A DNA stretch of 64,000 bases from positions 229,386 through 293,385 of the forward strand of contig DASZWJ010000019.1 of the NCBI GenBank assembly GCA_035546635.1. The letters run 5' to 3'. The DNA comes from Gammaproteobacteria bacterium. Lineage in GTDB: Bacteria; Pseudomonadota; Gammaproteobacteria; JAURND01. Below the pieces are notes generated by a model, which worked only from the letters and a program-made list of their open reading frames with translations, was not told where the DNA came from and did not search any database. Both the position numbers and the translations under genes were made by a program. This document shows positions 3,712-5,280 of this stretch, one piece after another. Position 1 is the stretch's first letter, and each line of letters opens with the position of its first letter.

Positions 3712-5280
3712 ATGGAAACGGAAGCCTCATCTTCATCCTTTAAATCATCTTTACAGCTTGTCCAACCTCAAGATACCATTGCAGCCGAATCGACTACAGC
3801 GGCTCAACACCAACTACTTGAAATCACTACCCACGTTGCGGCTCAGCTTCGCCAATTGCTAGGTCGACCTTTACGCGTAGTGGATTTAGGATGTGATGAT
3901 GGTTTATTCAGCCTGCAACTTGCCTGCGAGGGCGATGAAGTCATAGGTGCTGACTCAAATCAAGCACACATCTTAACCTGCCAAGCACGGGCCAAAGAAC
4001 TTGGCCTCACCACAACTTTTGTGACAGCCGACATCAGTAATTGGCAGAATTGTGGGAAATCATTTGACCTGGCGCTGGCATTTAATTTGACGCAGTTATC
4101 TGATTTGACGAAGATAGAGAAAACTGTACAAGCTTTATCACAGCGGGCAACCATCGCACTGATTACATCGTCTTGGCAGAATACACAAGAGAATACTTCT
4201 AATCCATTACCAGCTAACCCCTTTCAATTACTTCGACCCTATGCCTATCTTGAAAAATTAACAGAATACCCATCTAGCGTCACTGACATTAAAAACCCTG
4301 TTTTTTTCTGCAGCAATGCCTATTGGTACGCCAAGGGGGCTATGCAACGTTTTGATTATTGGACAGAACAATCACGCCAACGCTTTGAAAAAGAAGTGCA
4401 TAATAATATTTATCCGCATCGGCAGACACGTCGTTACTATTTTAATGATACCCGGATGTTGAAGCATTATCGCTTAACTGGGGATAAAATTAAAAGCAAC
4501 CGCAATGAAATTCAAGCTGAAATTAATTTTATTAACAATAATATGGATAAAATTAACACACTACCACGTATGCAAGCTTACAATATAAGCGAAGATGATG
4601 CCTGGATGTTGCGAGAAAAATTTTCTGGTATTAGATTAAGTTGTGCCATTTCTGACGGCATGGATTATGACCCTAAAAAAATTCTGGTCAGCATTTTACA
4701 GCAGTTGGCCTTATTTGAGCGTCATGGTTTTTATCAGAATGATCTTAGGCCGTGGAATTTTATTTTATCTGAGAATGATACGATATTTTTAATCGATTAT
4801 GGCACTGTCAGCCAAACACCCCGCGATTCATTATCCAGAAAAAAAAGTGTATTCATGAGCTTTTTAGTGTTGGCTCATGAAATTATTTATAGAAAAGTGC
4901 TACTTGTCAGGCAATTCAGCCCAGTTTTTATAAGCCCAAGATATTTTCCTGACAATTATGCCACGTGGTTATACCATCTACTTAGTACTGATTTTAGTCA
5001 GTGGAGTTTTGCATTATTTTTAGAATTGCTTGACCGCAAAGAATTACCCGATAGACATTCTAGAACAGCAGCTAATAATATGCTGTTGTGGCTTGACGAA
5101 ATAGATCAGCACTTGGGCAATCCTAAATTTAAAATGCAGCATTTTCAAAAGTATTTTATTAAAAAATTACATCTGGAAGTTACTAAAGCTGGTTGGAAAA
5201 GCAAGCTTACTACCTTTGTAAATAAGTTTTTACTATTATTGCCGCGCTTTAACCAAAAACCTAATCCTGAGCTTGAGTAG
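3712..5280 (+). CDS. Bifunctional-architecture protein: N-terminal class I SAM methyltransferase + C-terminal eukaryotic-like protein kinase fold (WbdD-like); paralog of 55198..56775
   Basis: N-terminal MTase motif I is LRVVDLGCDDGLFS with acidic post-I residue EVIGADS. C-terminal kinase features are RRYYF..TRMLKHY (beta3 Lys), NEIQAEINF (alphaC Glu), QNDLRPWNFIL (HxDxxxxN-type catalytic loop) and LIDYG (DFG-like). The start has a clean ATG with an AGGGAG RBS. The protein is ~35% identical over its full length to the ORF at 55198..56775. Confidence 0.6.
   Translation: METEASSSSFKSSLQLVQPQDTIAAESTTAAQHQLLEITTHVAAQLRQLLGRPLRVVDLGCDDGLFSLQLACEGDEVIGADSNQAHILTCQARAKELGLTTTFVTADISNWQNCGKSFDLALAFNLTQLSDLTKIEKTVQALSQRATIALITSSWQNTQENTSNPLPANPFQLLRPYAYLEKLTEYPSSVTDIKNPVFFCSNAYWYAKGAMQRFDYWTEQSRQRFEKEVHNNIYPHRQTRRYYFNDTRMLKHYRLTGDKIKSNRNEIQAEINFINNNMDKINTLPRMQAYNISEDDAWMLREKFSGIRLSCAISDGMDYDPKKILVSILQQLALFERHGFYQNDLRPWNFILSENDTIFLIDYGTVSQTPRDSLSRKKSVFMSFLVLAHEIIYRKVLLVRQFSPVFISPRYFPDNYATWLYHLLSTDFSQWSFALFLELLDRKELPDRHSRTAANNMLLWLDEIDQHLGNPKFKMQHFQKYFIKKLHLEVTKAGWKSKLTTFVNKFLLLLPRFNQKPNPELE

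Follow-up and report, generated by a model that had tools for sequence, protein, structure and literature searches.

WbdD caps the sugar chains of bacterial O antigens and is the textbook case of measuring and capping a sugar polymer. In the WbdD proteins of Escherichia coli O9a and Klebsiella O3 (PDB 4azs, 4azw and 4uw0), a methyltransferase domain is followed by a kinase domain and a helical tail. The bifunctional enzyme attaches methyl phosphate to the sugar at the non-reducing end of an undecaprenyl-linked glycan. The substitutions Y16F, H132A, H133A and R203A each abolish methylation and not phosphorylation, D351A abolishes WbdD function, and phosphorylation alone is enough for chain termination in the O9a system (PMC3482155). 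[quoted passage not shown] Single-activity terminators exist in nature, as the WbdD of E. coli O8 and Klebsiella O5 terminates chains with a methyltransferase only (PMC3482155; PMC11231755).

Other proteins join a methyltransferase to a kinase. Lcin_0519 of Legionella cincinnatiensis represents a remotely related kinase-methyltransferase family (PMC9758233), and the N-terminal module of Klebsiella pneumoniae O7 ORF6 combines a methyltransferase with a kinase domain that is quite different from that of WbdD in sequence and structure (PMC11231755). Both sit in wzm/wzt clusters, have been tied to modification of the LPS O antigen and are considered distinct from WbdD by the authors who described them, whereas the gene that we analyze here encodes a direct WbdD homolog. 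It lies beside ybeY in a window of 64,000 nucleotides, which is the whole stretch of DNA that was analyzed. Judged from its sequence, this focal gene is a WbdD variant in which the kinase half alone appears to be in working order, with a very short tail and a housekeeping context, and is not a new kind of system.

Results

A shortened WbdD homolog

The 522-residue open reading frame reported by the first-pass annotation is real. No other start codon lies between its ATG and the in-frame stop upstream of it, and it is preceded by a Shine-Dalgarno-like sequence (Table 1). A database record from a gammaproteobacterial MAG (P0001) is identical to its product. Using phmmer against the WbdD chains in the PDB, we found that the solved protein matches residues 33-456, a region that spans both domains (E = 1.4e-45). 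BLASTP aligned Klebsiella oxytoca WbdD with the focal protein at 27% identity (E = 8e-49), and identity to WbdD is about 24-27% in general. The match to the family profile has an E value of 3.8e-274, for a profile built partly from the focal protein itself. No NCBIfam model specific to the focal protein or to its paralog was found, and neither a signal peptide nor a transmembrane segment is predicted in the focal protein.

The AlphaFold2 (AF2) model computed from an 89-sequence alignment reached a pLDDT of 86.6 and a pTM of 0.84, and was used instead of an earlier model from a 5-sequence alignment (pLDDT 67) that was too weak for the tail. The best five Foldseek matches in the PDB are all WbdD (TMt 0.73-0.81), with 4azw at TMt 0.81 and an rmsd of 2.9 Å, and are followed in rank by eukaryotic kinases and class I methyltransferases. 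The initial proposal of a methyltransferase joined to a eukaryotic-like kinase in a WbdD-like architecture can thus be stated more firmly than it was, since sequence and fold both identify the protein as a true WbdD homolog and the model, compared with WbdD and kinase structures, does contain a kinase fold.

Table 1. Position of the features discussed in the text, in nucleotides of the 64,000-nt window.
Feature	Coordinates	Strand	Description and basis
Shine-Dalgarno-like GGGAG	3698..3702	+	9 nt 5' of the focal ATG; read from sequence
Focal WbdD-family CDS	3712..5280	+	522 aa; ORF call, WbdD match in PDB, Foldseek
Degenerate N-terminal lid remnant of the methyltransferase site	3712..3822	+	Residues 1-37; family motif LPEIYQ with Tyr16, and anion-pocket Arg31/Arg36, lost
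Class I SAM-methyltransferase fold	3823..4326	+	Residues 38-205; Rossmann/SAM core kept, catalytic and acceptor residues lost
Eukaryotic-like kinase domain, WbdD type	4327..5055	+	Residues 206-448; catalytic residues intact, ortholog conservation, pLDDT
Short helical tail	5056..5277	+	Residues 449-522; helices 448-466 and 471-509 (AF2 secondary structure)
Unique GC-rich hairpin	5303..5358	+	Perfect 12-nt arms TTAACCTCTCCC/GGGAGAGGTTAA; 23 nt past the focal stop codon
lnt	31837..33399	-	
corC	33412..34278	-	
Paralog	55198..56775	-	525 aa, both catalytic sites intact; sequence comparison

One domain conserved, the other degenerate

The kinase hallmarks claimed at first pass (β3 lysine, αC glutamate, catalytic loop and DFG-like motif) are real: K251, E270, D344, N349 and D362 fall on invariant or near-invariant family columns, K251 being invariant among 89 aligned sequences, and E266, R346 and W348 are retained as well. 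The focal protein has all of the residues known in WbdD numbering as D351, R353, W355, N356 and D369, which recur in 155-157 of 157 family sequences, so that the catalytic residues it has in common with the O9a/O3 enzymes include the WbdD-specific R353 and W355. Block-mean pLDDT is mostly above 90 over this domain, which is 71% identical between focal orthologs, compared with 68% for the kinase domain of the paralog in the same pair of genomes. The focal protein retains 33 of the 42 family-conserved kinase columns and the paralog 39. The Pfam Pkinase (PF00069) match is weak, at 24.8 bits for a curated cut-off of 31.7; although this threshold is not reached, the fold is kinase-like and the nearest relatives are WbdD-type sugar kinases. 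On this residue pattern, the kinase domain is most likely catalytically competent.

The acceptor side of the domain is altered. Unlike the O9a/O3 enzymes, the focal protein has an arginine (Arg222), adjoining a 7-residue insertion, at the position of the acceptor-contacting Tyr230, which is a histidine in 93% of the family. The histidine of the HxD motif is replaced by Gln342. The acceptor may therefore differ, or the activity may be altered. The residue that contacts the second sugar in WbdD, Glu274, has its counterpart in Glu266. Since hmmalign placed the residues around Tyr230 and His132/133 a few columns away from where MAFFT and BLASTP put them, conclusions here and below are limited to points on which all alignments agree.

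In the N-terminal half, motif I (LRVVDLGCDDG), as noted in the first-pass annotation, is present at residues 54-64, and a Methyltransf_25 match (E = 7e-11) supports its assignment to the class I SAM-methyltransferases. The SAM-binding core (D58, G60, G64, D81 and D119) is retained and block-mean pLDDT is about 88-98 over residues 31-150. Unlike the O9a/O3 proteins and most of the family, however, the focal protein has lost the tetrad Y16, H132, H133 and R203, which the paralog has and 147-151 of 157 family members retain. These four positions read V/Q/L/N in the focal protein, I/Q/L/Q in P0002 and S/S/E/Q in P0003, which together make up the three known orthologs, and the loss is also seen by BLASTP against K. 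oxytoca WbdD. Within the family, P0023, P0061 and P0004 are candidates for the place at which the tetrad began to be lost. In addition, the SVFHH segment is deleted, the ExAxxxEPxxW and THL motifs are gone, and the anion-pocket residues R31, R36 and H197 are absent. The N-terminal lid has Val in place of Tyr16, Ala in place of family R30 and Leu in place of R35; block-mean pLDDT over residues 1-37 is 40-57, and identity in this segment is 27% between focal orthologs versus 90% in the paralog pair. Methyl transfer to some other substrate is compatible with the loss of the known catalytic residues.

The same two genomes give a methyltransferase-domain identity of 40.5% for the focal pair and 72% for the paralog pair, and 33 of the 75 family-conserved columns in residues 1-205 are retained in the focal protein versus 60 in the paralog. 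Taken with the conservation of the kinase domain, these comparisons of sequences suggest relaxed constraint confined to the methyltransferase half of the focal orthogroup. Since every known methylation residue is lost, together with the lid and the anion pocket, a pseudo-methyltransferase is the best reading and a probable one. The bifunctionality implied at first pass is not supported for the focal orthogroup, from which the methyltransferase active site has gone, though it is intact in the paralog.

Past the kinase domain, WbdD carries a tail of ~250 residues (460-708) with a coiled coil of ~200 Å, whereas the focal protein has ~75 residues. In WbdD, kinase activity depends on the tail. The earlier remark that the coiled-coil ruler is missing is correct as regards the long ruler, and incomplete in that a helical tail of ~75 residues persists. 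A helix past the kinase domain is a feature that it has in common with the O9a/O3 enzymes. No transmembrane segment is predicted in the tail, which ends in a predicted cationic amphipathic segment (residues 497-516; hydrophobic moment 0.5, net charge +3). For comparison with the membrane helix and polymerase recruitment site of WbdD, the focal C-terminal end offers this predicted segment and no identifiable polymerase partner. The motif WLxE...KFKxxHFQKYFIKKL is common to the tails of the focal protein and of the paralog clade.

An intact paralog and a divided family

The second copy noted in the same window is confirmed on the minus strand, with 37% identity to the focal protein over 492 residues. 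It is equally 37% identical to K. oxytoca WbdD, in an alignment that starts at residue 10, and a related MAG carries its ortholog (70% identity) in a conserved gene order. The paralog and its relatives P0273 and P0274 resemble the focal protein in their clade of a neighbor-joining (NJ) tree, short length, tail motif and housekeeping context, but the paralog differs in that its two active sites and its N-terminal lid are preserved, with Tyr16, His132, His133 and Arg203 all in place. Root-to-tip distances of 0.94-1.05 in the focal orthogroup, against a family median of 0.80, indicate faster evolution, as far as a crude NJ tree that ignores kinship can tell. The focal gene belongs to a small lineage-specific paralog family. 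A third paralog, in the related MAG, sits beside a eukaryote-type LRR protein.

The paralog adjoins NamZ and a MurU-like nucleotidyltransferase, an arrangement that is conserved in the related MAG. We considered whether it could replace AmgK, the sugar kinase of peptidoglycan recycling. This is unlikely given that the genes are convergent, that the complete phosphate-methylating site is kept, and that WbdD-type kinases act at O3 of the terminal sugar and not at the anomeric position.

The methyltransferase-kinase architecture is not rare: when sequences are clustered at 50% identity, at least 467 groups match at E ≤ 1e-30, and the 150 best that were listed match over nearly their full length. 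Some members are already annotated as [quoted passage not shown]. A scan of GTDB genomes with the single protein found no close relative, but a profile scan did find relatives. The genes wzm-wzt lie near 41 of 69 family loci; with a single exception, they are located directly upstream in the same orientation. Across the family, long members adjoin wzm-wzt and short members do not, according to length and linkage statistics that are crude and ignore kinship; the short members P0294 and L029 do lie in canonical clusters. Several transporter-unlinked members (L006, L009, L012, L017, L083 and L086) are like the focal protein in having ~500-580 residues and no wzm/wzt within 10 kb, and they have neither recurrent neighbors nor an enrichment in glycosyltransferases. 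All-against-all BLAST of the neighbors of short unlinked members revealed no recurrent partner, and among the 83 neighbors of 12 such loci no glycosyltransferase family ranks among the 25 Pfam families listed as most frequent. In this Pfam count, TPR proteins are the only recurrent neighbor family, found three times.

An old resident between ybeY and ftsK

The absence of wzm/wzt and polymannose glycosyltransferases, reported for the immediate vicinity, holds across the 64-kb window: of the 53 listed ORFs with 120 or more residues, 50 were scanned with Pfam and gave no wzm, wzt or glycosyltransferase, and Wzm/Wzt HMMs derived from the family had no match when every window ORF with 90 or more residues was searched. 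The focal gene thus differs from those of O9a/O3 WbdD in having no adjoining wzm-wzt-wbdA. Within 10 kb of the ortholog in the related MAG, there is likewise no gene for glycan synthesis or export. The window contains no secretion system, and a tRNA scan found no tRNA gene in it. The closest named relatives of the MutS of this MAG are just 62-64% identical ("Coxiella sp. DG_40" MAG and Ca. Pelagadaptatus), which leaves the Legionellales membership and Dot/Icm secretion raised at first pass as conjecture.

As the first-pass annotation stated, corC and lnt lie ~28 kb away on the other strand. The order ybeY-focal gene-ftsK is found in three genomes (the focal genome, L001/L003 and the P0002 contig), the orthologs in the two other genomes being 57% and 68% identical, and the composition of the focal gene is ordinary for the window (GC z = -0.86, GC3 z = -0.35). 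Given this synteny and normal composition, the gene is not a recent insertion. The palindromic repeat pair thought to flank it (3615-3640 and 5300-5360) does not exist as a pair: the downstream member is a single hairpin whose arm sequence has no second copy in the window and nothing matching at 3615-3640. The idea of an inserted gene is therefore tenable as an old rearrangement and not as a recent or mobile acquisition. The focal gene is an old resident beside ybeY, not a mobile insertion.

The hairpin has a predicted RNA folding energy of -35.7 kcal/mol (z = -5.3), lacks a T-run and is not conserved in L003; it is possibly a transcript-end structure. Promoter and terminator scans returned counts not above those of shuffled sequence, and the sole Rfam match in positions 3000-6000 is a chance miRNA (E = 0.27).

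Discussion

We consider it probable that the focal protein caps glycans close to the membrane by its kinase activity alone, its other domain having become a pseudo-methyltransferase. Such an enzyme would be cytoplasmic and would probably form oligomers bound to the membrane surface, both oligomerization and membrane binding being predicted. Its kinase would most likely act as that of WbdD does, using ATP to phosphorylate a hydroxyl on the terminal sugar of a lipid-linked glycan, and the methyltransferase domain, which may have retained the ability to bind SAM or SAH, would persist for its structural role in the two-domain head. With ~75 instead of ~250 residues, the tail would hold the catalytic head close to the membrane, so that very short chains, or a membrane-proximal acceptor, would be capped. 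We infer a sugar acceptor purely from family membership, because no glycan genes are found within the 64 kb of the window or within 10 kb of the ortholog in the related MAG. The focal protein would be the mirror image of O8 WbdD, which kept the methyltransferase and has no kinase, whereas here the kinase is kept and the methyltransferase is predicted to be dead.

A broader interpretation, which we see as conceivable though somewhat unlikely, is that the short unlinked WbdD-like proteins form a distinct class that does not terminate O antigens, within which the ybeY-linked orthogroup would combine a kinase with a pseudo-methyltransferase whose SAM core serves as a sensor or scaffold, for a target other than O antigen. 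That target could be a protein, an intermediate of the cell envelope or a glycolipid near the membrane. The focal protein might then cooperate or co-assemble with its fully active paralog, and the paralogs may have decayed in complementary ways, one copy being kinase-only and another, in the related MAG, having an altered kinase loop.

Glycan capping would be abandoned altogether if the focal protein had been repurposed, whether to phosphorylate proteins or to be secreted as an effector by a host-associated bacterium, its SAM-binding domain then serving for regulation or targeting. The housekeeping context devoid of glycan genes, the short unlinked relatives of other taxa that also lack glycosyltransferases among the neighboring Pfam families listed, the acceptor loop remodeled by Arg222 and the insertion, the faster evolution of the orthogroup, the LRR protein beside the third paralog and the resemblance to eukaryotic kinases, including LegK4 in the Foldseek search, are all compatible with this scenario. 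We nevertheless regard it as unlikely, as the glutamate that contacts the second sugar in WbdD is kept (Glu266), neither a signal peptide nor a transmembrane segment is predicted and the window contains no secretion system, and the tail motif and amphipathic end are common to a paralog that is fully WbdD-like.

A fully bifunctional terminator, working with other methyltransferase-site residues on the O antigen of a wzm/wzt cluster located elsewhere, appears quite unlikely. The intact SAM core, the confident folding of the methyltransferase domain over residues 31-150, the annotation of the family as chain-terminating methyltransferase/kinase and the occurrence of P0294 and L029 in canonical clusters would agree with it. 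It conflicts with the loss of the methylation tetrad, anion pocket and lid in all three orthologs, with a divergence of the focal methyltransferase domain far faster than that of the kinase domain or the paralog methyltransferase, and with the lack of a nearby transporter.

That same loss and rapid divergence, next to a fully intact paralog in the same genome, could also describe a duplicated wbdD relic that is decaying toward a pseudogene and has no function of its own. We find this very improbable: the frame is intact, at 521-529 residues, in three genomes whose orthologs are just 57-68% identical, the kinase domain is as well conserved as that of the intact paralog (71% versus 68%) with all catalytic residues kept, and the model is confidently folded. 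Finally, although corC-lnt moved ~28 kb to the other strand and a strong hairpin lies just 3' of the focal gene, it is scarcely credible that the gene is cargo of a recent, repeat-bracketed insertion or rearrangement that displaced them, as this is contradicted by the ybeY-focal gene-ftsK order in two other genomes, the missing upstream repeat, the uniqueness of the hairpin arms, the normal GC and GC3 and the lack of tRNA genes.

A kinase-only glycan-capping enzyme with a decayed methyltransferase and a preserved SAM-binding core would be a natural variant that fits the published sufficiency of phosphorylation for stopping chains. As such, it offers a natural test case for the respective contributions of the methyl group and of the methyltransferase domain as a scaffold. 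It also draws attention to a split within the family, between long coiled-coil members located beside wzm-wzt and members of ~500-580 residues that are scattered and have no glycan genes nearby. If these short orphans act off O antigen, many database annotations as "O-antigen chain-terminating methyltransferase" would be over-predictions.

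The focal protein is a WbdD homolog

Both the open reading frame and the paralog proposed in the first-pass annotation are present (see the list of features), and the WbdD-like methyltransferase-kinase architecture ascribed to the focal protein is upheld by sequence and by fold. A phmmer search against PDB sequences retrieved WbdD chains (E 1.4e-45) over focal residues 33-456, covering both domains. The suggested structural check of the kinase fold was also carried out: an AlphaFold model built on an 89-sequence alignment (mean pLDDT 86.6, pTM 0.84) gave WbdD as all five best Foldseek matches in the PDB, with a TM score of 0.81 and an rmsd of 2.9 Å to monomeric WbdD 4azw, followed by eukaryotic kinases and class I methyltransferases. 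The focal protein is a true WbdD homolog, beyond mere shared domain order. As judged from its sequence, it belongs to a WbdD-like methyltransferase-kinase family. A profile search at E ≤ 1e-30 recovered at least 467 of its members, each representing a cluster formed at 50% identity, and the best 150 listed measure 434-2001 aa; some members already bear the database label [quoted passage not shown]. An identical protein, P0001, was previously on record from an uncultured gammaproteobacterial MAG. MutS of the window's MAG shares merely 62-64% identity with the nearest named organisms. In P0157, a metagenome contig of a close relative (71% identical MutS), MutS is annotated with ankyrin repeats as a single 1194-aa product, which may be an unusual fusion or an artefact of gene calling; its lineage also has eukaryote-like repeat proteins.

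Features of the focal gene, its product and related loci in the window
Feature	Position	Strand	Remarks
Focal CDS	3712..5280	+	522 aa; starts at first start codon after upstream stop
GGGAG	9 nt 5′ of focal ATG	+	Sequence inspection
Class I methyltransferase models	Focal residues 54-157		Pfam; Methyltransf_25 E 7e-11
Protein-kinase match	Focal residues 258-392		Pfam, sub-threshold: 24.8 bits vs cut-off 31.7
Hairpin	5303-5358		Perfect 12-nt arms; RNA fold z-score −5.3; 23 nt past focal stop codon
lnt	31837-33399	-	Pfam
corC	33412-34278	-	Pfam
Paralog	55198..56775	-	525 aa; 37% identity to focal protein over 492 aa

An old resident of a housekeeping locus

The gene lies in the order mfd-miaB-phoH-ybeY-[gene]-ftsK-rdgC, beyond which are found rne, thi genes, msbA-lpxK, lnt-corC, rpsA, mutS and the his operon; corC-lnt are indeed away from ybeY on the other strand. 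Of the 53 listed ORFs of 120 aa or more, 50 were scanned with Pfam; the functions assigned were all housekeeping ones, glycan-synthesis genes did not turn up, and, as first noted, no wzm, wzt or glycosyltransferase was found in the 64-kb window. The relative MAG MFD09286.bin.1.170 carries a focal ortholog (57% identity) at the identical genomic position, amid neighbours 70-88% identical to the window's, and the phoH-ybeY-[gene] order recurs in a third genome (P0002, 68% identity). The composition of the gene is ordinary (GC z −0.86, GC3 z −0.35). Conserved synteny and ordinary composition therefore indicate an old resident of the site, and the synteny contradicts a recent insertion. The paired palindromic repeats at 3615-3640 and 5300-5360, first read as consistent with insertion or rearrangement, reduce to one single hairpin: its arm sequence has no second occurrence in the window, and nothing resembling it lies at 3615-3640. 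This very stable hairpin lacks a T-run, has no Rfam match and has no conserved counterpart in the relative MAG.

Other ORFs of the locus deserve mention. The 522-aa product of 9240-10808 (+), which contains a long low-complexity stretch rich in serine, matches no Pfam or NCBIfam model. It is a very fast-evolving orphan amid conserved housekeeping genes, because identity to its relative-MAG counterpart is just 29%, over 118 aa. ORF 24630-26084 (+), immediately upstream of msbA-lpxK (26321-29100), encodes a 484-aa hydrophobic protein without a Pfam match even at E ≤ 1; by eye it looks like a multi-pass membrane protein and a candidate lipid-linked-sugar (GT-C/ArnT-like) transferase. The starts of ORFs 733-2184 (+) and 16625-17830 (+) are probably set too far upstream: miaB, at 483 aa, exceeds its 444-aa counterpart from the relative MAG and likely starts internally, and the FAD oxidoreductase ORF (16625-17830) overlaps the end of thiC by ~119 nt.

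A dead methylation site beside an intact kinase

In E. coli WbdD, substitutions Y16F, H132A, H133A and R203A each kill methylation while the kinase remains active, and D351A abolishes kinase activity (PMC3482155). K. oxytoca WbdD served as reference for residue comparison because its numbering is the same. All four methylation residues are replaced in the focal protein and its orthologs; BLASTP against K. oxytoca WbdD likewise aligned no His or Arg at these positions, and alignment of the N-terminal 45 residues is gone. The anion pocket beside the methylation site (R31, R36, H197) is absent too. The Rossmann/SAM core is retained (R52, P53, D58, G60, C61, G64, G74, G79, D81, D119), so that what remains is a putatively SAM-binding core whose methylation site is dead.

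Methylation residues (WbdD numbering) and retention of columns at least 85% conserved across 83 other family members (75 in the methyltransferase half, 42 in the kinase)
Protein	Y16	H132	H133	R203	Methyltransferase-half columns kept	Kinase columns kept
WbdD and most of family (147-151/157)	Y	H	H	R		
Focal protein	V	Q	L	N	33/75	33/42
P0002 (focal ortholog)	I	Q	L	Q	34/75	32/42
P0003 (focal ortholog)	S	S	E	Q	39/75	34/42
Paralog	Y	H	H	R	60/75	39/42
Paralog's ortholog	Y	H	H	R		
P0273 (relative of paralog)					61/75	39/42
P0274 (third paralog)	Y	H	H	R	56/75	32/42

Between the window genome and the relative MAG, the focal pair shares 27% identity in the N-terminus, 40.5% in the methyltransferase domain, 71% in the kinase and 57% in the tail, versus 90, 72, 68 and 65% for the paralog pair. 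Relaxation of constraint in the focal orthogroup is therefore specific to the methyltransferase half. The focal kinase is under normal constraint and its site is intact, with D344, R346, W348, N349, D362, K251, E266 and E270 kept; the motifs first singled out (K251, E270, D344, N349, D362 and motif I) fall on invariant or near-invariant family columns. Gln342 replaces His in the HxD motif. Arg222 stands at the acceptor-contacting Tyr230 of WbdD, a position held by His in 93% of the family, and is directly followed by a 7-residue insertion. A decaying relic is argued against by the conserved reading frame and kinase domain.

The coiled-coil ruler had been called missing; a long one is absent, yet a helical tail of ~75 residues follows the kinase. 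Its predicted helices (448-466 and 471-509 in the AlphaFold model) end in a predicted cationic amphipathic stretch (497-516), and no transmembrane segment was found in it. The WbdD tail spans residues 460-708; its post-kinase helix drives trimerisation and is required for activity, its coiled coil keeps the catalytic head ~200 Å off the membrane, and its C-terminal amphipathic helix binds the membrane (PMC3482155, PMC5082667, PMC11231755).

Paralogs and family

The alignment of the paralog to K. oxytoca WbdD starts at residue 10, and LPEIYQ, SVFHH and RPxY are intact in it. Its synteny (his operon, rhodanese, NamZ, MurU-like nucleotidyltransferase, [paralog]) is shared with the relative MAG. 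It lies tail-to-tail, with a 4 bp overlap, with 53022-55201 (+), which encodes NamZ (exo-beta-N-acetylmuramidase) and a MurU-like sugar-1-phosphate nucleotidyltransferase (MurU model, 100 bits, under the cut-off of 250), as in the relative MAG (L004). Weak APH-family (AmgK-type) Pfam matches were confined to the two window paralogs among the 50/53 ORFs of at least 120 aa scanned. The opposite strand carries a second MsbA-like ABC exporter 470 bp away (57243-59048, +; MsbA_rel E 3e-111, below its cut-off); it is probably not a functional partner of the paralog, because it is missing at the equivalent relative-MAG position.

The relative MAG has a third paralog elsewhere (P0274; L008, 9917-11449), with no ortholog among the proteins of the window's source MAG in database searches. 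It shows an altered kinase glycine-rich loop plus R240Y, Y242N, E266K, W348C and G364A, and lies beside genes for a GNAT (Acetyltransf_3) and an LRR_6 protein of eukaryote type. Its sequence, set beside that of the focal gene, hints at complementary decay among paralogs. In an NJ tree, the focal, paralog and third-paralog copies form one clade with two metagenomic sequences, and the focal orthogroup has the longest branches (root-to-tip 0.94-1.05 versus a family median of 0.80).

We examined 69 full-length family hits (the two window copies plus 67 from loci, among which one ortholog appears three times). wzm-wzt are nearby in 41; with a single exception, they lie immediately upstream on the gene's own strand. 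Across the family loci (L003-L071, L083-L086), linked proteins are long (median 727 aa), versus a median of 524.5 aa for unlinked ones with enough flank (Mann-Whitney p 7e-7, uncorrected for phylogeny). The exceptions are one short member inside a canonical wzm-wzt cluster, another inside a Wzx/Wzy-type cluster, and L086, an unrelated contig with two short paralogs in tandem, then the GNAT family as in L008. No recurrent neighbours emerged for unlinked short members in an all-against-all BLAST. Across 83 neighbours of 12 such loci, TPR proteins alone recur, three times, and glycosyltransferase families are absent from the 25 most frequent Pfam families.

A putative membrane-proximal kinase

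As a functional O9a-type WbdD, the focal protein fails three tested defining features: it has lost the methylation residues, it has no long ruler, and its gene is not linked to wzm-wzt and a polymerase. Less likely rival readings are a still-bifunctional terminator working for a distant cluster, and a kinase that has come to serve a target other than a glycan or to act as an effector. Phosphorylation by itself is enough to terminate O9a chains (PMC3482155), and a short ruler implies action near the membrane (PMC5082667). Most likely, the focal protein acts as a kinase close to the membrane, probably as an oligomer; it would phosphorylate the last sugar on a short lipid-linked glycan or similar acceptor and would not methylate it, the methyltransferase domain being retained as part of a two-domain head. 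It would thereby be the mirror image of O8/O5 WbdD, which is methyltransferase-only.
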